From: an uncultured Candidatus Saccharibacteria bacterium
Lineage (GTDB): Bacteria > Patescibacteriota > Saccharimonadia > Saccharimonadales > CAZPPF01
Length of the DNA stretch: 35,353 nt
NCBI GenBank assembly: GCA_964627365.1
Contig: CAZVJS010000002.1
Span: 1-35,353 of the forward strand
Direction of reading: 5' to 3'
Shown here piece after piece: positions 2,635-35,353 of this stretch; within the stretch, counting starts at the first letter, position 1, and each line of letters begins with the position of its first letter. The notes under the pieces are model-generated. The model ran no database searches, was not told where the DNA came from, and saw only the letters and a list, made by a program, of their open reading frames with translations. The translations under genes and the position numbers were made by a program.

Positions 2635-4071
2635 ATGGATACAACTACTCGCGTACCAAACGTGCCGCTGGCCAAATTCAAGCGCACCAAGATCATTGCC
2701 ACGGTTGGACCCTCAACCGACAGCTATGAAGCAATACTCAAACTGCTCAAAGCCGGAGCCAATGGTTTGCGCCTAAACTTTAGTCATGGAACTTATGAAG
2801 AACGCGAGCGTCAGATCAAATGGATTCGGAAGGCCGCTCACGAATACGGTAAGCCGGTAGCAATTATTCTAGATTTGCAGGGCCCTAAGATACGTTTGGG
2901 AGATTTCGACGGCGTTATCATGGTAAATGCCGGCCAAAGCCTGGCACTAAAATACCAGGCAGATTACGAAAGATCAGGCATTATTCCCACGCAATATGAC
3001 CTAAGTAAAAAGGTCAAGCGTGGTCAGCCGCTCCATATTTACGATGGAAAAGTTCGTACAGAGGTCACCAGCGTCAAAGATGGCGTTGTGCACATTCGGG
3101 CCAAGAACAACGGCATTCTGATTAAGCGCAAAGGCATTAATTTGCCGGAGACAGACTTTGGCGGGGATATTATTACCACCAAAGACCGCCGCGACCTGGC
3201 CTTTGGTTCTGAGCATGACATAGATTATGTGGGACTAAGTTTTGTGCAACACTCCCGTGATATAGCCAAGCTACGTACATTGCTCAAAAATCTGGGCACC
3301 AACGCTCGGATCATTGCCAAGGTAGAAACCGCCGCTGCAATTGAAAATATCGAAGCAATTGTGCAAGAAGCTGATGCTGTCATGGTTGCCCGCGGTGACC
3401 TAGCCACCGAGACATCACCTGAGTCCGTGCCTATTGTGCAGCGCAGAATTGTGGGTTTAGGGCTACATTATGCCAAGCCAACCATTGTAGCTACCCAAAT
3501 GTTAGCTAGCATGATGGAAGAACCGGAGCCAACTCGGGCTGAAGTTTCGGACGTAGCCACAGCAGTGATAATTGGTGCTGATTGTGTGATGCTGAGCGAT
3601 GAAACGGCCACCGGCAAGTATCCTATCGACGCCGTCAAGGTAATGAAACGGGTGATTTTGTATACTCAGGAGAATAACCCAATCGAAACTGTTCGTTTTG
3701 TGGATGTTGCCCCCGACAGGAGCCGACAAACTTCTATTTCGACCGCTGTTATCAAGCTGGCTAGCACCATTCAGGCCACTGCAATTGTGGCCGAGACAAA
3801 GTCTGGCGCAACTGCCCTCCAGATTGCCGCCCAACGCCCAAAAATTCCTATTATTGCTGTGACCTCAGATGACCGCACTGCTCAGCAGTTGGCATTGGTA
3901 TATGGATCCAAAAGTTATGTCCGACCGGCCGACAAACTAGCTGCCACTAAATTGACCAACTGGCTTTTGCAAAACAATGTGCTCAAGAAAGGTGAAATTG
4001 TAGTGACAGCTTCTGGGCAATATCCGGGTGTGGTGGGAACTACAGACACAATCAAAGTCCGGGTGTTATAG
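2635..4071 (+). CDS. pyk: Pyruvate kinase
   Basis: 478 aa with TKIIATVGPS, LNFSHG and MVARGDL motifs. SD aaggaaag lies upstream. Confidence 0.93.
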   Translation: MDTTTRVPNVPLAKFKRTKIIATVGPSTDSYEAILKLLKAGANGLRLNFSHGTYEERERQIKWIRKAAHEYGKPVAIILDLQGPKIRLGDFDGVIMVNAGQSLALKYQADYERSGIIPTQYDLSKKVKRGQPLHIYDGKVRTEVTSVKDGVVHIRAKNNGILIKRKGINLPETDFGGDIITTKDRRDLAFGSEHDIDYVGLSFVQHSRDIAKLRTLLKNLGTNARIIAKVETAAAIENIEAIVQEADAVMVARGDLATETSPESVPIVQRRIVGLGLHYAKPTIVATQMLASMMEEPEPTRAEVSDVATAVIIGADCVMLSDETATGKYPIDAVKVMKRVILYTQENNPIETVRFVDVAPDRSRQTSISTAVIKLASTIQATAIVAETKSGATALQIAAQRPKIPIIAVTSDDRTAQQLALVYGSKSYVRPADKLAATKLTNWLLQNNVLKKGEIVVTASGQYPGVVGTTDTIKVRVL

Positions 4072-4097
4072 TATTCGCTAGAAAGGGTGGGCGTCCC

Positions 4098-5387
4098 TTG
4101 GGGTTCAACAAAAAAACAATTCACGACATTGATCTGCACGGCAAGACAGTGCTGCTGCGGGCTGACTACAATGTGCCGGTGTCAGGCGGCAAGATTACTG
4201 ATGACTACCGTATTAAGCAGTCACTGCCAACCATTGAATTTCTACTGGGGCAAAATTGTAAACTGGTTATTTGTTCGCACCTGGGGCGTCCGAGTGGAAC
4301 TGGTGATGCTGCTACCAGTTTAAAGCCAGTGGCCAAACGCCTATCTAAGCTACTTGGCAAAGATGTTGGCTTTGCTTCAGACTGTGTTGGGCCGGAGGCT
4401 GAAGCGGCTGCTAGTGGGCTGAAACAGGGCCAGATTTTGTTACTAGAAAACTTGCGTTATCACGAAGCTGAAGAAAAGAATGACCCAGAGTTTGCTAAAC
4501 AACTGGCCAGCCTGGCCGAAGTGTTTGTACAAGATGGTTTTGGTGTGGTGCACCGGGCGCACGCTTCAACTGATGCAATTACCAAGTTTTTACCGAGTGT
4601 TGCAGGGTTATTACTCGAAAAAGAAGTCAGTACTATTAACGAAGTTATGGAAAATCCCAAGCGACCGCTGATGGCAGTGATCGGTGGCGCTAAAATCTCT
4701 GACAAGATAGAAGTCTTGAAGCGTCTAATAGATATTGCCGACTTTGTAGCCGTAGGCGGGGCTATGGCCAACACGTTTCTGCTAGCCGAAGGCATTAAGA
4801 CCGGCAAAAGTTTGGTAGAAAAAGCCGATGTGCCATTGGCTGAGGAAATTATTGAAAAAGCCCGGGCAAAGGCCAAAAAAGAGCCATTTATTTTCTATAT
4901 TCCCCAGGACGGAGTAGTTGCTAGCAAGATGGATAAGTCGACGCATACCAGGATTGTGGACTGGAGTGCGCATGTTGTTGCCGAGATAGAAAACTATCCC
5001 AAGACACCGCCACCCGAGAGCGGGGTGATTGAGCCTGATGAAATGGTTCTGGATATTGGGCCGTTCTCAGGAGCCTTTATTGCCGGTGGAATGCAGCTGG
5101 CCAACACCGTGGTATGGAATGGAACCATGGGTGTCACCGAAATACCAGCTCTACATGGTCCAGTTGGCCCGTTTGCGCAAGGAACAGAACTGGTGATTGA
5201 ATCAATACTGGGCCAGTTTGGGCACCGACCATATAGCTTAGTAGGCGGAGGCGATACGGTAGGGTATCTGGAAAGTCGGGGACAAATGGAGCTATTTGAC
5301 CATGTTTCGACTGGTGGTGGTGCTAGCCTAGAGCTAATGAGTGGAAAAAAACTGCCAGGAGTTGAGGCTCTCGAGGATAAGAGGTGA
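4098..5387 (+). CDS. pgk: Phosphoglycerate kinase
   Basis: 429 aa with a TTG start preceded by gaaagggtgg. Motifs include LLRADYNVP and STGGGASLE. Confidence 0.93.
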   Translation: MGFNKKTIHDIDLHGKTVLLRADYNVPVSGGKITDDYRIKQSLPTIEFLLGQNCKLVICSHLGRPSGTGDAATSLKPVAKRLSKLLGKDVGFASDCVGPEAEAAASGLKQGQILLLENLRYHEAEEKNDPEFAKQLASLAEVFVQDGFGVVHRAHASTDAITKFLPSVAGLLLEKEVSTINEVMENPKRPLMAVIGGAKISDKIEVLKRLIDIADFVAVGGAMANTFLLAEGIKTGKSLVEKADVPLAEEIIEKARAKAKKEPFIFYIPQDGVVASKMDKSTHTRIVDWSAHVVAEIENYPKTPPPESGVIEPDEMVLDIGPFSGAFIAGGMQLANTVVWNGTMGVTEIPALHGPVGPFAQGTELVIESILGQFGHRPYSLVGGGDTVGYLESRGQMELFDHVSTGGGASLELMSGKKLPGVEALEDKR

Positions 5388-5412
5388 TACAATAAGCAAA
5401 AGCATTATTACC

Positions 5413-6213
5413 ATGAGAAAAACTCTGATTGTCGGCAACTGGAAGATGAACCTGGACACCTCGCAGGCTAGTTTGCTGGTGCATCGCCTGGAAGAGCGAA
5501 TCAAGATTCACCAAGACATTGAGGTGGTGCTGGCTCCCAGCCTACTGACCTTGCAACCCTTGAGTCTGCAAATTGACCGGCGCAAGTTTCGCTTGGCCGC
5601 TCAGAATGCCTACCTCAAAGACGAGGGAGCCTTTACGGGCGAGGTGAGCTTTACGATGTTGCGCGACCTGGTGCATTACGTAATTGTGGGGCATTCTGAG
5701 CGGCGCCTCTACTTCCATGAAGATTTACCAGTTGTTCGTGACAAAGTTGCGGCGGCCATTCGTAATGAGATCAGTCCAATTTTATGTGTTGGCGAAACGC
5801 AGGTAGAGCGCCGAGCTGGAGAGACTAGACAAGTCTTGCACGATCAAATTATGAGTGCGCTTAGTAACTTGACCGACCAAGAAGTCAGTGAAGTGGTAAT
5901 TGCCTATGAACCGGTCTGGGCCATCAGTACTTTCGGTGGAATTTTGGCCAAGCCAGATGAAGTCAAACAAGCCATGAATTTTATCCGCAAGCAAGTCGAA
6001 GATTTGTATGGTCCAAAAGCTGCCAAAAAGGTCCGCATTTTGTACGGTGGTAGTGTGGATGATCAGATTGTAACCGGTTACTTAGAAATTGAAGGTTGTG
6101 ATGGCGTTCTGGTTGGCGGCGCTAGCCTGAATTATCATAAATTTAGCGGAATTGTTGAAAAAGCCTATGCTCTAAAACACGCACGGGAGGAACAGAATGG
6201 CAAAAACGACTAA
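5413..6213 (+). CDS. tpiA: Triosephosphate isomerase
   Basis: The ATG at 5413 gives the canonical N-terminus MRKTLIVGNWKMN. VGHSERR and AYEPVWAI motifs are present. The ORF-track start at 5341 is an upstream extension. Confidence 0.92.
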   Translation: MRKTLIVGNWKMNLDTSQASLLVHRLEERIKIHQDIEVVLAPSLLTLQPLSLQIDRRKFRLAAQNAYLKDEGAFTGEVSFTMLRDLVHYVIVGHSERRLYFHEDLPVVRDKVAAAIRNEISPILCVGETQVERRAGETRQVLHDQIMSALSNLTDQEVSEVVIAYEPVWAISTFGGILAKPDEVKQAMNFIRKQVEDLYGPKAAKKVRILYGGSVDDQIVTGYLEIEGCDGVLVGGASLNYHKFSGIVEKAYALKHAREEQNGKND

Positions 6214-27836: not shown

Positions 27837-29288
27837 ATGATGAATTATTATGTGACGACCTCTATTCCCTATGTCAACGGCGAGCCGCATTTGGGGCACG
27901 CTATGGAGTTTATTATGGGTGATGTGCTGGCACGTTATGCACGGCAGCAAAAAAAGCCCGTCATTTTTAGTACTGGCACCGATGAGCATGGTGGCAAAAT
28001 TGCCGAAAAGGCCGCTGAACTTAAGATCACACCCCAAGCCTTTTCTGACAAAGTCAGCGAACAGTTCAAAGTTCTGGCCAAGCAGCTCAACATTAGCAAT
28101 GACAGGTTTATACGTACCACTGACCCAGGTCATGAACAGCGGGCGCAGATTATCTGGAAAAATCTAGAAAAAGATATTTACAAAGGTAAGTACACTGGCT
28201 GGTACTGCAAGGGTGAAGAAGAATTCTTCTCGGAAAAAGTTGTCAAAGCAAACAATGGGACTTGCCCCGTACATAAGTGGGCTTATGAAAAAATCGAGGA
28301 AGAAAACTATTTCTTTAAGCTCAGCAAATATGCTCCACAGATCCAAAAAGCCATCGATAGTGAGTCATATCGGGTTGTACCCAAAACTCGCAAACACGAA
28401 GCACTTGCAGTTATCAAGGAAGGTTTGGATGATATTAGCATTTCTAGGCCCAAAGAAAAGCTTGAATGGGGAATTCCAGTACCCGGCGATTCTAAACATG
28501 TCATGTATGTTTGGTTTGAAGCGCTCATGAACTATATTACGGTGTTGGGCTACCCAGAACATGAAGACTTTAAGCAATTTTGGCCAGCCAACGTGCACGT
28601 AATAGGCAAAGACATTTCGCGTTTCCATGCCGCTATTTGGCCGGGTATGCTGATGGGCCTGGGTTTGCCGCTACCTAAGCAATTGTTTGTGCACGGATTT
28701 ATCAATGCTGCCGGTGGCGAAAAAATGAGCAAATCGCTTGGAAATTCAATTTCTCCCAATGAGATCATCAAAAAATACAGTGCTGACGTGTTTCGGTACT
28801 TTTTCTTGCGCCATATTCCCAGCTACGAAGATGGTGAATTTACCTGGGAACGATTAGAAGCAGCTTACAACAATGAGCTAGCTAACGAGCTTGGCAATGC
28901 AGTGCAACGAACCGTTGCCATGGTTCAAAAATACCAAAACGGTATTATTGGTGCGATCCCGGAAGCGCAACACGACATTGCTCAGTACACTGAAGCATTA
29001 GAAAATTGTCGCTTTGACCGAGCCTTGGACGAGGTTTGGGAACAGGTCCGCGGGCTTAACCAGTATATTGATGAAGAAAAACCCTGGGAACTGGCCAAAA
29101 ACAAGGAAGCAGATCACTTGCAAGAAGTTTTGGCGTACCAAGTAGGTATGCTACTGGAAATTGCTGAACTACTGGAACCATTTATGCCAGAAACCTCCCA
29201 AAAGATTCAACACGCCTTTCATGAGGGTGTGATCCGCCCCACCAAAGAGACCCTCTTTCCAAAAGAAGAAAAACCGGCTGCTGCGTAA
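27837..29288 (+). CDS. metG: Methionyl-tRNA synthetase (short form)
   Basis: HIGH-type PHLGH and KMSKS motifs; 483 aa. Confidence 0.92.
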   Translation: MMNYYVTTSIPYVNGEPHLGHAMEFIMGDVLARYARQQKKPVIFSTGTDEHGGKIAEKAAELKITPQAFSDKVSEQFKVLAKQLNISNDRFIRTTDPGHEQRAQIIWKNLEKDIYKGKYTGWYCKGEEEFFSEKVVKANNGTCPVHKWAYEKIEEENYFFKLSKYAPQIQKAIDSESYRVVPKTRKHEALAVIKEGLDDISISRPKEKLEWGIPVPGDSKHVMYVWFEALMNYITVLGYPEHEDFKQFWPANVHVIGKDISRFHAAIWPGMLMGLGLPLPKQLFVHGFINAAGGEKMSKSLGNSISPNEIIKKYSADVFRYFFLRHIPSYEDGEFTWERLEAAYNNELANELGNAVQRTVAMVQKYQNGIIGAIPEAQHDIAQYTEALENCRFDRALDEVWEQVRGLNQYIDEEKPWELAKNKEADHLQEVLAYQVGMLLEIAELLEPFMPETSQKIQHAFHEGVIRPTKETLFPKEEKPAAA

Positions 29289-29313
29289 GACTCACATGGC
29301 GTAAAATGAGGGC

Positions 29314-30114
29314 ATGGAGCTGGTTGATACCCACTGTCATATACACTTTCCAGACTATGAGCTGGATCCTGAGGAAGTAATTACCTCGGCTACAGAGGCG
29401 GGGGTGATGCGGTTGATATGCGTTGGTTGCACTTTGCCAGATAGCAAACTGGCAGTAAAAATGGCTGCACAGCACGACAATATCTGGGCCAGCATTGGTC
29501 TGCATCCACACGAAGGGTCAGAGTATGTCCATGATGACATCGCCCTGCAGCAATTTCACGACCTGGCCAGCAAACCAAAAGTAGTAGCGATTGGCGAAAC
29601 TGGGTTGGATTACTACTACAATCATTCCACCAAAGAAGATCAACAGAAATTACTACGTTTTCAGCTGGATATGGCGGTGGAACACGATTTACCGGTTATT
29701 TTTCATCTGAGAGGCGCCAAAGATGATGAAAATCAGGTGTATGACGATTTCTTTGCTCTGTACGGCCAATACAAGGGCCTGAGAGGCGTGATACATAGCT
29801 TTTCTACAAATAGACGTGTTCTTGACAAAATCCTAGAATATGGGCTGTACGTGGGTCTGAACGGCATTATGACCTTTTCTAAAAACGCGGATCAGTTGGC
29901 GGCGGCAAAGGCCATCCCGTTGGAAAAATTACTACTTGAAACAGATGCGCCCTTCTTGACTCCTGCTCCCCATCGTGGTAAAATCTGCGAGCCTAAGTAC
30001 GTTGGAGTTACAGCGGAATTTCTTGCAAAATTACGGGGCGAAAGCCTCGCGAATCTTGCCGCCACCACAACGGCCAACGCCCAAGGCTTGTTTAAACTAA
30101 CAGAGGCGAAATGA
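29314..30114 (+). CDS. tatD: TatD-family metal-dependent hydrolase/DNase
   Basis: N-terminal LVDTHCHI motif; 266 aa. It sits downstream of metG as in Firmicutes (metS-yabD). Confidence 0.88.
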   Translation: MELVDTHCHIHFPDYELDPEEVITSATEAGVMRLICVGCTLPDSKLAVKMAAQHDNIWASIGLHPHEGSEYVHDDIALQQFHDLASKPKVVAIGETGLDYYYNHSTKEDQQKLLRFQLDMAVEHDLPVIFHLRGAKDDENQVYDDFFALYGQYKGLRGVIHSFSTNRRVLDKILEYGLYVGLNGIMTFSKNADQLAAAKAIPLEKLLLETDAPFLTPAPHRGKICEPKYVGVTAEFLAKLRGESLANLAATTTANAQGLFKLTEAK

Positions 30115-30494
30115 ACCCCAAAGATTTAATACCGGTCTTTAAGCACGAAAATCATGCAGAGCACCTGCCAATTATTGCGCGCCGTGAGAATGTTTTATAC
30201 GGTGCAGGAGGTTTTGCGCTGGAGATCGAACGCGTGCTGGGTCTATCTGAAGAGGTAATTACATACGCTGCCAAACCCGAAAATCTATCTGCTGCGTTTC
30301 CTGATCTTGAACAGGCCTTAAATGATGAATACAACAAGTCAGAAGAGACATTAGTTTCTGATGAACACGTGCCCGCTTCACAACAAATTATTGACAATGC
30401 TGACAGTCAGGGCCATCTGGATATTGGACAAGCCAAAGATGCGGTTTTGAGAGCGTTAAACGAGGAGCAGACCTATGATTCGGAAACTGTTTAG
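30111..30494 (+). CDS. Hypothetical acidic protein
   Basis: ATGA overlap with the tatD stop. I recognise no domain. Confidence 0.45.
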   Translation: MNPKDLIPVFKHENHAEHLPIIARRENVLYGAGGFALEIERVLGLSEEVITYAAKPENLSAAFPDLEQALNDEYNKSEETLVSDEHVPASQQIIDNADSQGHLDIGQAKDAVLRALNEEQTYDSETV

Positions 30495-30843
30495 TTCTTT
30501 TTCTGCTCAGCGTCAGGCTCAGCGTGAGGCGGAACTGTATCGTAACTTGATTCGCCACGAAGCCAAGATTGGCGGCCAATTGTTTGGGCCTGTCCCCGAA
30601 GGTGGTCGCCGCGAGTTTTTCTGTCTGGATGAACACACTTGGGTGTGGCATGAAGAGTGGACCGACAAATCTGGCAATCATCGTGCTAAAACAACTCGCT
30701 ATGACATGCGTCCCAACGGCATCCTGAAAGCCCAAGACGGACAGCACTACCAACAGGTCAGCGAAGAAGAAGCTCGCAACCTTTTTCGAGCCATCAAGAC
30801 ATATTTGCAGCGCGTTCATTCAGAAATTTACGCCCAGATTTAG
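30475..30843 (+). CDS. Hypothetical protein
   Basis: 122-aa ORF with balanced composition that overlaps the previous ORF by 20 nt. The antisense 143-aa ORF looks like a shadow. Confidence 0.5.
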   Translation: MIRKLFSSFSAQRQAQREAELYRNLIRHEAKIGGQLFGPVPEGGRREFFCLDEHTWVWHEEWTDKSGNHRAKTTRYDMRPNGILKAQDGQHYQQVSEEEARNLFRAIKTYLQRVHSEIYAQI

Positions 30844-30877
30844 ACTCTGCCTAATAGCGGCTTTATACTAAACGTTT

Positions 30878-32017
30878 ATGACTCAGATATATTTAGACTA
30901 CGCGGCGGCTACGCCGCTGGATGAGGAAGTGCTGGCTGCTATGCAGCCGTATTTTGCTGATAACTTTTATAACCCTTCCGCAACCTATTTGGCTGGCCGC
31001 CACACCAGCGACCAGCTGGCCAAAGCCCGCGCCGAAGTTGCAGCTTACCTTGGTTCCCGGGCCAGTGAAATTATCTTTACGGCAGGTGGAACCGAAGCCA
31101 ATAACTTGGCAATTCGTGGCATTATGGAGCGGTTTCCAAAGGGTCATCTTGTAGTTAGTGCAATTGAGCATGACTCGGTGCTTAAACCAGCCGAGAAATA
31201 CAACCATAGCTTGGCTCCTGTGACAAAAGAGGCCGTGGTAGACATAGACAAGCTTAAGAAACTTATCCGCGATAATACTGTGCTTATAAGCGTAATGTAC
31301 GCCAACAATGAAGTAGGCACGATTCAGCCGATCAAGGAAATTAGCCGGCTAGTCTCAAACGTTCGAACTGAGCGATTGGAAAAAGGCAACCAACTTCCCC
31401 TGTATTTCCACACTGACGCCTGTCAGGCCGGAAATTACCTGGACATGCATGTCAACAGATTGGGTGTAGATATGTTGACCATCAATGGCGGTAAGTTATA
31501 TGGCCCAAAGCAGAGTGGAGCTTTGTATGTAAAAGCTGGGATTGAGCTAGAACCGATCATCTACGGTGGAGGGCAGGAAAATGGCCTGCGCAGTGGTACC
31601 GAAAACGTGGCTGGAAGTGTTGGCCTGGCAGCAGCTCTTACCAGGGCTCAAGCCTTGCGCAAGGAAGAAGTTGAACGCCTGGGGCAGCTGCAAAAGGACT
31701 TTATAAAACTACTAGACACTCAAATTCCCAAAGCCATCATCAACGGTTCCAAGCACCACCGGTTGCCCAGCAACGTGCACCTTACGCTGCCAGGTCACGA
31801 CAACGAACGCTTGATGATGCAGCTAGATGAACAAGGGATTATCTGCGCCGTGGGCTCAGCCTGCAGTGCCAGTAACGACGAACCTTCACACGTTCTCAAG
31901 GCTATGGGACTAAGTAACCAAGATGCTCAAGCCAGCTTGCGCTTTACTATGGGTCGCCAAACCTCCCAACAAGAAATCAAAACCACCGTCAAAACCCTCG
32001 CCAAATTCGTTGAGTAG
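30878..32017 (+). CDS. Cysteine desulfurase (class V aminotransferase, NifS/IscS-like)
   Basis: YLDYAAATP, a PLP-Lys region INGGKLYGPK (SGHK replaced by NGGK), GGGQENGLRSGTENV and the catalytic loop GSACSA. Confidence 0.88.
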   Translation: MTQIYLDYAAATPLDEEVLAAMQPYFADNFYNPSATYLAGRHTSDQLAKARAEVAAYLGSRASEIIFTAGGTEANNLAIRGIMERFPKGHLVVSAIEHDSVLKPAEKYNHSLAPVTKEAVVDIDKLKKLIRDNTVLISVMYANNEVGTIQPIKEISRLVSNVRTERLEKGNQLPLYFHTDACQAGNYLDMHVNRLGVDMLTINGGKLYGPKQSGALYVKAGIELEPIIYGGGQENGLRSGTENVAGSVGLAAALTRAQALRKEEVERLGQLQKDFIKLLDTQIPKAIINGSKHHRLPSNVHLTLPGHDNERLMMQLDEQGIICAVGSACSASNDEPSHVLKAMGLSNQDAQASLRFTMGRQTSQQEIKTTVKTLAKFVE

Positions 32018-32076
32018 GCCTCTCTAAGATATTGGTCTCTACAATTACAAGCGGTATACTGTTATCAGTTTCGACC

Positions 32077-32922
32077 ATGGTACGACAAAAACGAAAACAC
32101 CCGCTATCAAAACGGCAATTGATTGCCGTTGTTGGACTTGGGCTACTGGTGGTTATCAGCCGCTGGTCCACAGGCACAGCTCAAGTAGTTCCCCAAGGTT
32201 ATAAATCTGATGAAACCCTGCAGCGTGGCATGCTGGTGATGCTCAAGAGTGACGACTCAAGCAAGGTCACAGCTCTCACTGCCAGCGAATCAGACAAAAT
32301 GCTAGGTGTAGTGGTAGACAAAAATGACGCTCCAGTTACTATTTCTGATGGTGCGCAAACGGTGTATGTGGCTAATACGGGTCATTTCGATGTACTAGTG
32401 AGTGATCAAAACGGTTCGATTAGCGCCAATGACAACGTGGCGGTATCAGCCTTGGCTGGAATTGGCATGAAAGCTGACACGGCTCAGCCAAACATTGCTG
32501 GAAAGGCTCTAAGCGGGTTTAACGGCAAAGATAATGTGATTGGAACTACCAAAGTCAAAGATGCCGGTGGCAAAGAAAAAGATGTCCACATTGGCTACGT
32601 TACAACCGACATTAACATCGGTAAAAACCCGCAGTTTAAGGCTGAAGCGCAGGTGCCAGAAGCGCTCAGAAAGGCCTCTGCGGCTATTGCCCAAAAGCAA
32701 GTTACGGCCTCTAAAATCTATGTGGGAATCATCCTAATTTTTCTGACGTCTGTTATTGCAGCTGTTGTGCTGTATTCGGGTGTAAGAAGCAGCATTATTG
32801 CCCTTGGTCGTAATCCGCTTAGTCGCAAATCAATTCTGCGGGGCATGTTTCAGGTGATCATCACCAGTATTATCATTTTTATCTGTGGTCTTTTTGGGGT
32901 ATATTTACTACTGAAAGTATAA
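32077..32922 (+). CDS. Membrane protein: N-terminal TM, roughly 200-aa extracytoplasmic domain and a C-terminal two-helix hairpin resembling ATP synthase subunit c
   Basis: The ATG at 32077 gives MVRQKRKHPLSKRQLIAVVGLGLLVV. The C-terminus is IYVGIILIFLTSVIAAVVLYSGVRSSIIALGRNPLSRKSILRGMFQVIITSIIIFICGLFGVYLLLKV. The ORF-track start at 32032 is TTG. Confidence 0.55.
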   Translation: MVRQKRKHPLSKRQLIAVVGLGLLVVISRWSTGTAQVVPQGYKSDETLQRGMLVMLKSDDSSKVTALTASESDKMLGVVVDKNDAPVTISDGAQTVYVANTGHFDVLVSDQNGSISANDNVAVSALAGIGMKADTAQPNIAGKALSGFNGKDNVIGTTKVKDAGGKEKDVHIGYVTTDINIGKNPQFKAEAQVPEALRKASAAIAQKQVTASKIYVGIILIFLTSVIAAVVLYSGVRSSIIALGRNPLSRKSILRGMFQVIITSIIIFICGLFGVYLLLKV

Positions 32923-32944: not shown

Positions 32945-33565
32945 GTGCAATTAACGACGCTACTTCTCATACTCGGTATTATCCTGGCAATTGCTGGTGG
33001 GTTGATCTGGTTAGTTACACGAAAAGACCAGGCTGCCAAGGCCGAAAAACCCAAAGAGGTAGACTATACCAAGACAGCCGAAGAGGATGTAGAACATATC
33101 TTTAACGATGAGTTTCGTGAAGAGCTTCGTAACCGTGGACGACTGCATTTTGAGAAGATCATTGGCGAGAACGCTATGTTCTTGCAACAAGACTTACGTC
33201 TGACTACCTCGCAGCTCAACGACTACATGAAGCAAGAGATAACCCGTACGCTTCAGGAAGAATTCTCGAAGTACGAGCGGTCAATTACAGATGCCAAGCA
33301 ACTAGCGATTGATTCGATCAACAAAACCCAAGAAGCCATTGAACAACAGCGTAAGATTTTGGGTGAACAATTAGAAAAACAAGTCGATGCCGAAAAGACG
33401 CGTTTGATAACAGGTTTTGAGAAAAATATGGCGGATGTGGTAAATCACTACGTTTTGGCTGCGATTGGCAACCAGATAGACCTTAACGACCAGCTGGAAT
33501 ACATCATTGGTGAAATGCAAACAAACAAAGACGCAATACTTGAGGACATAAAGAATGGCTCATGA
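32945..33565 (+). CDS. atpF: F-type ATP synthase subunit b-like protein
   Basis: GTG start, a single N-terminal TM helix and a long charged coiled-coil. It lies immediately upstream of delta and alpha. Confidence 0.55.
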   Translation: MQLTTLLLILGIILAIAGGLIWLVTRKDQAAKAEKPKEVDYTKTAEEDVEHIFNDEFREELRNRGRLHFEKIIGENAMFLQQDLRLTTSQLNDYMKQEITRTLQEEFSKYERSITDAKQLAIDSINKTQEAIEQQRKILGEQLEKQVDAEKTRLITGFEKNMADVVNHYVLAAIGNQIDLNDQLEYIIGEMQTNKDAILEDIKNGS

Positions 33566-34058
33566 AAAAACGGAACTTCACCTGCCTGTTACCACGGTAA
33601 CCATCGTCGATGTTGGACGACTGCAACGAGAACTTGAGGCGTTGGACGGTTTTCTGGCTCAAGCGGCCGCTCGAGGAAGTGGTAAATCCGTCACCATGCC
33701 TAAAACCACCAAATCATTTGACGAGTTTGTGAAACAAAACGAGCTACAACTACACGAAGAAGCAGATCGTACCAAGTTGAATGAGTTTTTGGAGTCAGTA
33801 CGCGCCAGTGCACCAGTCATACATGTAAGTTTTTCGGCTGAACCATCGGCGGCTTTTTTGCAAAAGATGATTTCGTGGTTTAGGACCGAGATTGATCCTT
33901 TGGTACTACTTCAGGTGGGTTTGCAGCCAAGTATTGCAGCCGGTTGTGTCATGCGTACCACCAATAAGTACTTTGATTTCTCGATGCGCAAACATTTCCA
34001 AAAAAACCGTGAGCTACTGATTGAGAGCATGCGCAAGGGAGCGGCAAGTGGAGGCTGA
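33555..34058 (+). CDS. atpH: F-type ATP synthase subunit delta (OSCP)
   Basis: The C-terminal pattern [24 protein letters not shown] matches the delta consensus (..GG.vv..g...iD.S.r..l). It overlaps its neighbours by 11 nt on each side. Confidence 0.6.
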
Positions 34059-35353
34059 TAAACACTTCACTAAGCTCGTAGAAGCCGGCAATCCGGTTGG
34101 AGAAGTTATTGGAGTGCAAGGGTTTTTGGTGCATGTGAAAGGTCTGCAACCGGTAAATATTCACGGGTTGATCATGTTCGAGGATGGCAGTAAAGGCTTT
34201 GTGCATGAAATTCAGGGAACCAGGGTAACCGTATTGCACCTAGGAGATAAAAACCTATCTCAGGGTATGGTGGCCGTTGTTCAACACCAGGAACTAGTAA
34301 GCAAAGTCGGCAAAGAATTTATTGGCCGGGTCGTTTCGGTCACCGGTGACCCACTCGACGGCAAGGGTCCAGTAGCGGCCTCAGCCGTGCGGTCCGTCTT
34401 TAACACTGCTCCGCCACTGTATACGCGTAAGCTACTGGATACCCAGCTGGAGAGTGGCGTTACAGCCATTGATGCCTTGTTTCCAATTGTCCGCGGGCAG
34501 CGTTTAGCGCTGCTAGGCGACAGTAAATCTGGCAAAAGTACCTTAGCTACTCAGCTTACGATAAACCAGAAAAACACCGACCAAATTGTAGTCTATGCCC
34601 TAATTGCCAAACGTCGCAGCGACGTCGACACTTTGTTGAGCCGCCTGCAGGAAGCGGGTGGTCTGGAAAAGGCCATCGTGATTGTTTCTACCATGTTTGA
34701 ATCGATTATTATGAGTTATCTAGCGCCATACGTAGCCTGTGCCATGGCCGAATTTCTGTGGCAGGAGTGTGACCAAGACACCATTATTATTTACGACGAC
34801 CTGACCAGCCATGCTCAGGCTTACCGCGAAGTTGCTCTGATGTCTGGCGTCAGCCCCGGCCGTGACTCTTACCCCGGTGATATGTTCTACGCTCACTCCA
34901 GCCTGCTTGAACGGGCTGGTCGTCTGGAAAAGAATGGTAAACACTTAACCAGTGTGCCTGTTGTACTGGCGGCTGGTGGGGACATTACCGCTTTCCTACC
35001 CACCAACATTATGTCCATTACCGATGGGCAGTGGATTTTGGATATGGACATTTTCCGGAATGGTATTCGTCCGGCCATGAACATAGGTCTTAGTGTGACC
35101 CGTGTTGGCGGTGTTGGGCACAATAAACGGCAAAAGGCCCTGGCTGCCCAAACGCTCAAACTTCTGGCTGACTACCGCCAAGCCGAAGAATTCTCGCACT
35201 TTGGTTCGGAACTAGCCCTAGAGTCCAAAAAAGCGCTCGAAATTGGTAAAAATATCTTTAGTGTACTTACGCAAAGCCCCACCGAAACCTACTCATTAAT
35301 GGCTCAACAGCTGATGGTAGACATTGTCCTAAATAACGAACAAGGTGTGCAAC
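34048..35353 (+). CDS. atpA: F-type ATP synthase subunit alpha (divergent), 3' end outside the window
   Basis: This gene is absent from the ORF track because the frame stays open to the window edge. The GTG at 34048 follows aaggga. Motifs are P-loop [36 protein letters not shown] and SVTRVGG. Confidence 0.85.

Follow-up and report, generated by a model that had tools for sequence, protein, structure and literature searches.

The locus considered here raises the question of what a 281-aa membrane protein is doing directly ahead of b-like, delta and alpha genes of an F-type ATPase, the position at which the gene for subunit c (atpE) would be expected. The locus lies near the end of the window, meaning the whole stretch of 35,353 nucleotides that was analysed (contig CAZVJS010000002.1 of assembly GCA_964627365.1, positions 1 to 35,353), which belongs to a Saccharibacteria genome (candidate phyla radiation (CPR)/Patescibacteria) from soil and carries almost exclusively housekeeping genes on the + strand. 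The protein, here called X, and its neighbours are best read as part of a separate, divergent F1-like operon and not as a canonical atp operon in which atpE has been replaced. On balance, and with somewhat better than even confidence, X is taken to serve as the dedicated membrane part ('X0'), whether rotor or anchor, of a second F1-like ATPase, a divergent one that is conserved in the class Saccharimonadia (Saccharibacteria). An earlier note, made from the sequence of this DNA, had described a 281-aa protein directly upstream of the b-like, delta and alpha genes, and the open reading frame (ORF), the gap that follows it and the overlaps beyond are all present as follows:

32077..32922, + strand: X, 281-aa membrane subunit (probable signal peptide, predicted extracellular beta domain, c-like hairpin), an ORF with an ATG start
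32945..33565, + strand: b', 206-aa peripheral-stalk-like subunit, beginning 22 nt downstream of the end of X
33555..34058, + strand: delta', 167-aa diverged delta/OSCP subunit, with an 11-nt overlap with b'
34048..35353, + strand, truncated by the end of the window: alpha subunit of the F1-like ATPase, with a GTG start and an 11-nt overlap with delta'

An in-frame TTG at 32032 lies upstream of X and is not supported as its start because the alignment of homologues begins at the ATG at 32077. Among these four genes, neighbours either overlap at their start and stop codons or, between X and b', lie 22 nt apart.

The X family comprises at least 812 clusters at 90% identity, with 4418 representatives at E<=1e-3 and members in 292 GTDB species genomes, and the related loci come from Saccharibacteria or Saccharimonadales metagenome-assembled genomes. 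One locus with a full X-type unit (L056, DATHJH010000036.1) is labelled Candidatus Limnocylindria (Chloroflexota), probably through the mis-binning of a contig from Saccharibacteria. In 84 sources the gene order never varies: cysteine desulfurase, X, b', delta', alpha, gamma, beta, epsilon. It is identical in the window, in loci L002-L083 and in a 481-kb JGI contig, and the adjacency is kept in every sufficiently long locus, covering 80 GTDB species; 62 sources reach epsilon, after which a convergent gene follows. The gene for b' stands directly after X in 82 of the 84 sources, the remaining two stopping at a contig edge, and also in three loci of a divergent clade, which answers the check proposed in the earlier note, whether X is conserved upstream of the b-like gene in related genomes. 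The divergent clade (L084, L087, L088) keeps the same seven genes, X to epsilon, in three different neighbourhoods and without the desulfurase, and the seven genes, rather than their flanks, are therefore the unit. That the gene of an unrelated surface protein has come to lie beside an atp-like operon by chance is next to impossible, since the order X-b'-delta'-alpha-gamma-beta-epsilon holds wherever a locus extends far enough, both in the 80 GTDB species and in the divergent clade, where the flanks differ.

The F1 head of this unit is, judged by its sequence, real but divergent. Alpha from the window matches PF00006 with an E-value of 5.8e-67 and scores 378 bits against TIGR00962, the cut-off of which is 484, and a full-length orthologue (L002) scores 374. 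Set against the NCBIfam equivalog cut-offs, the F1 subunits of the X unit reach 374 of 484 (alpha), 86 of 194 (gamma), 418 of 463 (beta) and 42 of 67 (epsilon). Beta has a GGAGVGKT P-loop and the GERIREG motif with its catalytic Glu, alpha retains the LSVTR arginine finger, and a catalytically competent alpha3beta3 hexamer is predicted. Epsilon, at 90-110 aa, consists of the beta-sandwich only and has no C-terminal helical domain. Beta is short, at 433-437 aa (L002 14453-16062 and all X-type loci), and the length of alpha ranges between 472 and ~580 aa, some species having a C-terminal tail of low complexity (Pro/Ala/Lys/Glu). ORF splits occur at a few loci, in delta' (L003 5385-5877), beta (L028, L049, L057) and gamma (L069), and are frameshifts due either to errors of assembly or to the unit decaying in some populations.

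Alpha and beta of the X unit score higher against atpA/atpD than against N-ATPase, mycoplasma F1-like or FliI models. An identity as an N-ATPase, or alternate F1F0 ATPase, was rejected: the alt_F1F0 scores are 313 against a cut-off of 750 for alpha and 380 against 752 for beta, and the unit lacks genes for a, c, Q and R. An identity as a type III secretion system (T3SS)/FliI ATPase was likewise rejected, the FliI models scoring far lower than atpA/atpD.

The two genes between X and alpha encode a peripheral stalk. Delta' is, from profile comparisons, a genuine although diverged delta/OSCP: it matches TIGR01145 with an E-value of 0.0033, 29 of 37 orthologues match PF00213 (best E 3.6e-4), and the delta' profile matches OSCP/delta chains in the PDB over the C-terminal domain (E 0.0085-0.02). 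The identity of b' as a b subunit is weakly shown, with PF00430 matched by 7 of 41 orthologues (best E 2.5e-4), and a single-sequence AlphaFold2 (AF2) model consists of one N-terminal transmembrane helix and one helix of ~150 residues (residues 2-29 and 55-203). A Foldseek search with that model gave no useful information, as is to be expected of one long helix. Mean column identity of b' across 41 species is 72%, with 59 invariant columns, compared with 57-64% for X and 47% for delta'; b' is far more conserved than is usual for b subunits of peripheral stalks, a degree of conservation that suggests contacts along its whole length.

The relationship of the unit to the canonical ATP synthase of these bacteria follows from what it contains and from what related genomes contain. 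A hidden Markov model (HMM) built from seven c subunits found no c-like ORF within 10 kb on either side of X in 84 sources, and over all 7244 locus ORFs it picked the beta P-loop and returned no canonical c gene and no X. Neither PF00119 nor PF00137 occurs among the Pfam-annotated called genes at the loci looked up or in the rest of the window. Judged by the presence of atpB and atpE and by F1 subunits at equivalog scores, the X unit does not qualify as a canonical operon, whereas the operon of Southlakia does have the canonical arrangement, AtpZ/I-a-c-b-delta-alpha-gamma-(inserted gene)-beta-epsilon, and its c matches PF00137. Published KEGG Orthology (KO) counts for the complete Saccharimonadales genomes of S. 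aalborgensis, GWC2_44_17 and Mycosynbacter amalyticus give two copies each of alpha, beta and gamma and one each of a, b, c and epsilon, those for TM7x and RAAC3 give one copy of every F-type KO, and some genomes of the order CAILAD01 have alpha/beta/gamma(/epsilon) KOs and zero a, b or c (PMC12592800 Table S5). Doubled alpha, beta and gamma with single a, b and c is the pattern that a canonical and an X-type set would produce together, as neither KO nor Pfam registers X, b' or delta'. The earlier note's description of X as sitting where atpE is expected is thus misleading, given the sub-cut-off F1 scores and the canonical operons elsewhere in the phylum.

The same observations bear on the suggestion, also made in the earlier note, that X assists or helps to assemble an ordinary ATP synthase, or that it is a degenerate c forming one complex with canonical a and c subunits encoded elsewhere. 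X does occupy the atpE slot of an otherwise F-type-looking operon, and canonical a and c genes do exist elsewhere in related genomes, but the adjacent F1, b and delta genes form a divergent set of paralogues in their own right, with F1 scores below all the equivalog cut-offs. Genomes with one a/b/c set have two alpha/beta/gamma sets, whereas TM7x, RAAC3 and Southlakia, which have the canonical operon only, have one, and no X was noticed in the Southlakia annotation tables. In addition, the seven-gene unit moves as one block. A role in assembling or assisting the ordinary enzyme is therefore very improbable.

X itself has the following parts, with residue numbers counted from the ATG at 32077:

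32077..32181, + strand: residues ~1-35, N-terminal basic region and hydrophobic helix, probable cleavable Sec signal peptide (AF2 helix, conserved small residues)
32182..32661, + strand: residues ~36-195, predicted extracellular beta-rich domain with a phage decoration/appendage-like fold (AF2, Foldseek)
32707..32811, + strand: residues 211-245, hairpin helix 1, with a small-residue stripe and near-invariant Y215, Y233, G235 and R237 (AF2, alignment)
32806..32817, + strand: predicted cytoplasmic apex motif G244-R245-N246-P247, invariant in 539 unique sequences
32815..32916, + strand: residues 247-280, hairpin helix 2, with no carboxylate and a C-terminal G-V-Y-L-L-L-K (AF2, alignment)

The AF2 model of X, built with 103 homologues, has a mean predicted local distance difference test (pLDDT) score of 86.9. 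It consists of a helix at residues 12-30, a break at 32-34 where pLDDT falls below 50, a beta-rich region of eleven strands spanning residues ~40-183, a short helix at 195-205 and a hairpin of helices 211-245 and 247-280 with a tight turn at N246. The last ~70 residues thus form a two-helix hairpin, as the earlier note had proposed. The N-terminal transmembrane helix of that note, by contrast, is probably not a third transmembrane helix but a Sec signal peptide that is cleaved off, because an invariant mature start, (V/I)-(T/S)-Q-G-Y, is preceded by small residues (A-x-T/S/A), and these by a hydrophobic core and a basic n-region; small residues stand at -3/-1 before this start in most of 436 X sequences. 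Mature X would then have the topology of subunit c, with the N-terminus outside, a basic loop inside and the C-terminus outside.

The extracytoplasmic domain, put at roughly 200 aa and of unknown fold in the earlier note, is ~160 aa and matches the beta domain of phage decoration and appendage proteins. Its best PDB match in Foldseek is capsid chain 8hdt_G of Pam3 (E 1.8e-4), with further matches to capsid chains of BB1, Sf11 and HFTV1, and in BFVD it matches preneck-appendage barrel, DUF2190 and Mtd N-terminal proteins at an E-value of 1e-8, with a root-mean-square deviation (rmsd) of 2.5-3.4 A over ~150 columns. The fold of the X ectodomain is shared with capsid decoration and appendage domains (DUF2190-like, as in Pam3, BB1, Sf11 and HFTV1, and the phi29-type preneck appendage barrel), whereas sequence identity is only 12-22% and X is a cellular membrane protein in which the domain is fused to a hairpin. 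Decoration and appendage domains are typically oligomerising surface modules. Profile searches with the full protein assigned X to no Pfam or NCBIfam family, and matches of the ectodomain to Hint_2 (E 0.12) and to a PKA regulatory subunit (E 0.26) were dismissed as noise.

The hairpin resembles subunit c (PF00137, atpE) in several respects: both are two-helix transmembrane hairpins with termini outside and a polar cytoplasmic loop, the topology of X being a predicted one, both have helices of ~35 and 34 residues, and both genes stand immediately before a b-like gene. Subunit c, however, is a protein of ~75 aa with a mid-membrane Asp/Glu, a GxGxGxG motif and an adjacent atpB, whereas X, at 281 aa, has none of these and carries a signal peptide and an ectodomain. 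The R-N-P apex of X is also found in mitochondrial-type c subunits (A/S-R-N-P), and R-(Q/N)-P is characteristic of the loop of F-type c subunits. The distance from N246 to the C-terminus is exactly 35 residues in 529 of 539 X sequences. Among the 50 PDB matches listed by Foldseek for X, ~30 are F-type c subunits, from more than 10 species, and every listed match that covers the hairpin only and has a probability above 0.6 is an F-type c subunit. The matches to c subunits, with Chloroflexus c at TM-scores of 0.85-0.87 (rmsd 1.2-1.4 A), have E-values of 0.16-1.3, the best being 9itt_I (TM-score 0.87, rmsd 1.2 A, 66 columns, 23% identity).

The ion-binding carboxylate of subunit c is absent from X, as the earlier note had observed. 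Helix 2 in the window contains no Asp or Glu, its polar residues being Q259, T263, S264, C270 and Y276, and in the register of subunit c the carboxylate position falls on I265; across 539 sequences, Asp or Glu occurs within the membrane cores in just three. Helix 1 has only a stripe of G/A/S/T, and the GxGxGxG packing motif, whose absence had also been remarked upon, is missing. Because the unit provides neither a membrane carboxylate nor a subunit a, canonical H+ or Na+ coupling is excluded.

A non-canonical route for ions or small solutes was considered as well, in which residues such as R237 and Q259 (E259 in one clade) would form a site and b' or neighbouring X helices would replace subunit a. 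At residue 259 (window 32851-32853), which stands 13 past N246, 424 of the 539 sequences have Q, 74 have E, 13 have K and 8 have R, so that Q259 is 79% conserved, and R237, at a similar depth on helix 1, is 97% conserved. The unusual conservation of b' extends to its transmembrane region, and the alpha/beta/gamma(/epsilon) set of CAILAD01 would, if X-type, be the sole F-type machine there. The E259 variants cluster in the divergent clade ('LLEVGL'). On the other hand, position 259 lies at the membrane boundary beside the basic loop, 13 residues past N246 instead of the 19 found in c, and not in mid-membrane. The cores hold no other polar or charged residues, no polytopic partner with half-channels is present, and Q alone is unable to carry a proton or Na+. 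Translocation through such a site is improbable.

Taken together, the unit encodes an alpha3beta3 head, a central stalk of gamma and a beta-sandwich epsilon, and a peripheral stalk of b' and delta', with X replacing a and c. Cleavage of the signal peptide would leave the c-like hairpin with its R-N-P loop in the cytoplasm and both termini outside, and the N-terminus of each X copy would carry the extracellular beta domain of ~160 aa. The likeliest arrangement of the hairpins is an oligomeric ring, in which the R-N-P loops would dock gamma and epsilon as the loops of a c-ring do and the ectodomains would form a crown outside the membrane. ATP hydrolysis would drive the motor, and the X ring would relay torque or a conformational change to the cell surface. 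The machine probably runs as an ATP-hydrolysing motor for mechanical work, and not for ion pumping or ATP synthesis. The most specific version of this proposal, an undescribed rotary ATPase with a carboxylate-free c-like ring bearing ectodomains, in which cytoplasmic ATP hydrolysis turns or actuates an extracellular crown with no ion coupling, is tentative and, taken as a whole, unlikely. If it is true, the crown motor might serve the epibiotic lifestyle, for example in the handling of giant surface proteins, in attachment or in surface remodelling.

A number of findings weigh against a rotor made of X. PF00137 gave no match to the full protein (E<=1) or to 22 hairpins (E<=10), searches of PDB sequences with X, an X profile and a hairpin profile returned no c subunit, and the HMM of seven c subunits ranks X within noise. 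An hhalign comparison of the X hairpin with the seven c subunits gave P-values of 0.009 to 0.033 and probabilities of 1.5-4.4%, confined to the loop region. The Foldseek matches are not decisive because a two-helix hairpin is simple and the PDB is rich in c subunits. The unit has no subunit a, leaving no evident anchor for b' and no evident outlet for torque. At two loci, L085 (10001-20111) and L086 (10001-18105), a giant ORF (3047 and 2379 aa) directly follows X and no F1 genes are nearby; therefore, either X can occur without the ATPase genes or these two loci have a divided unit. That the X-type set stands beside a canonical one is suggested by KO counts of related genomes, whose second set may be the X-type one. 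Finally, a search of sequencing runs found the sequence in soil metagenome DNA runs only and in no RNA runs.

Several of these points favour an alternative in which X is unrelated to subunit c and is instead an independent surface protein with a two-helix anchor, tethering or actuated by the F1-like head without a rotor ring. The same may hold for MMCAP2_0577, a protein with a signal peptide, extracellular domains and two C-terminal transmembrane helices that belongs to the mycoplasma Type 3 F1-like X0 ATPase, an enzyme needed for the surface MIB-MIP system (Beven et al. 2012, PMC3369863; Berlureau et al. 2025 preprint, 10.64898/2025.12.04.692339). That analogue, with the same succession of signal peptide, ectodomain and two transmembrane helices, is placed away from gamma and epsilon by AlphaFold3. 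The lack of any Pfam, NCBIfam or PDB sequence match of X to c subunits, its rank within noise, an hhalign probability of at most 4.4%, the loss of both GxGxGxG and the carboxylate, and the occurrence of X without neighbouring F1 genes all fit an unrelated anchor. It accounts less well for an invariant R-N-P exactly at the apex of a hairpin whose helix lengths are strictly fixed and c-like, for hairpin-only Foldseek matches that are almost all c subunits, for an epsilon that retains only the ring- and gamma-binding beta-sandwich, and for the gene slot of X directly before b'. It also has to contend with the register of the hhalign alignment, which pairs columns 33-60 of both profiles, loop on loop, setting G-R-N-P against A-R-Q/N-P of c; at a P-value of 0.009 this was equalled by one of 150 column-permuted controls and thus beats the other 149. 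An anchor without common ancestry with c is a serious competitor, if not a likely one.

X is accordingly seen most plausibly as a neofunctionalised relative of the rotor ring, a possibility already raised in the earlier note for a c-like hairpin without the carboxylate. Topology, the R-N-P apex, the Foldseek matches and the gene slot uphold that part of the note, and profile similarity does not. A lack of similarity to the PF00137 profile had been named there as what would overturn the idea, and with no PF00137 match and a weak hhalign result, the profile evidence comes close to doing so. X probably works like, and may derive from, subunit c, while falling outside the PF00137 family.

The giant ORFs of L085 and L086 have counterparts within the same divergent clade: in L087 (15855-20822) and L088 (16114-20831) a giant ORF that is ~45% identical over ~550 aa comes after epsilon. 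The position of X next to giant ORFs hints either that b' to epsilon were deleted or relocated or that X is functionally linked to giant surface proteins.

The closest functional parallel to the X unit is probably found in the mycoplasma F1-like X0 ATPases, of which it would be an analogue. Like the X unit, the mycoplasma Type 3 system is an alpha/beta/gamma/epsilon set without a or c in a genome-reduced, host-dependent bacterium, and in both, one protein combines a signal peptide with an ectodomain and two C-terminal transmembrane helices, MMCAP2_0577 at 87 kDa and X at 31 kDa. The Type 3 system is linked to a cell-surface function, MIB-MIP. Its paralogous set sits beside a canonical F1Fo, whereas for the X unit co-residence rests on the KO counts of related genomes. 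The Type 3 cluster includes a 12-transmembrane-helix protein and a small cytoplasmic protein, lacks b and delta, and has an alpha without the delta-binding N-terminus; the X unit, unlike it, has b' and delta' and no 12-transmembrane-helix protein. No sequence link between the two was found, in that X matches no NCBIfam family and alpha and beta score far below the MSC_0619/MSC_0618 cut-offs and nearer to atpA/atpD. The Saccharibacteria unit is therefore regarded as an independent variant, because the mycoplasma system is without b and delta, has a 12-transmembrane-helix subunit and bears no detectable sequence relation to it.

Two further systems offer partial parallels. The Type 2 gliding motor of Mycoplasma mobile (MMOB1660/1670) is an F1-derived ATPase used for mechanical work at the surface and not for ion coupling, but it is a cytoplasmic dimeric chain with phosphoglycerate kinase (PGK) and has no X-like subunit. 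Against the MMOB1660/1670 models, alpha and beta of the X unit score 316 and 329 bits, lower than against atpA/atpD and far short of the cut-offs of these models. In the flagellar/T3SS export ATPase (FliI-FliH-FliJ), a hexamer resembling F1, with counterparts of the gamma stalk and of the b/delta tether, docks on a membrane ring and energises a surface process. In contrast to FliI-FliH-FliJ, the X unit has a true alpha/beta heterohexamer, gamma, epsilon and separate b' and delta', and it has no export-gate proteins.

Full-text literature searches found no description of the X unit in Saccharibacteria or the CPR. The published accounts consulted treat the F-type genes of Saccharibacteria as ordinary ATP synthase, and the mycoplasma literature calls F1-like X0 ATPases mycoplasma-specific. 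In CPR genome surveys, matches to alpha, beta and gamma are tallied as 'F-type ATPase' and taken as a sign of proton-coupled ATP synthesis, when many of these genes belong to a machine without a canonical ion path. Inferences on energy metabolism in Saccharibacteria need revisiting, especially for lineages with alpha, beta and gamma but no a, b or c, and if the CAILAD01 set is an X-type unit, CAILAD01 bacteria would be without a canonical ATP synthase. The unit amounts to a natural experiment in which an F1 head and an intact peripheral stalk are combined with a c-like element that lacks the ion site and carries an ectodomain. A second independent case in a genome-reduced, host-dependent lineage would suggest that F1 has been recruited repeatedly for surface mechanics, an idea that is testable since some Saccharibacteria are cultivable and genetically tractable.

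A scan for promoters and terminators around X gave signals no better than those of shuffled sequence. Elsewhere in the window, the genes for PGK, pyruvate kinase and triose-phosphate isomerase are consecutive at 2635-6213; PGK is built into the F1-like gliding chains of M. mobile, but here it lies 26 kb from the X unit and therefore no link is implied. Upstream of X, at 27837-32017, lies a block of genes for methionyl-tRNA synthetase (MetRS), TatD, two small hypothetical ORFs and a class-V aminotransferase (cysteine desulfurase-like). This MetRS-to-desulfurase block precedes X throughout the main clade and not in the divergent clade, and represents conserved synteny outside the unit.

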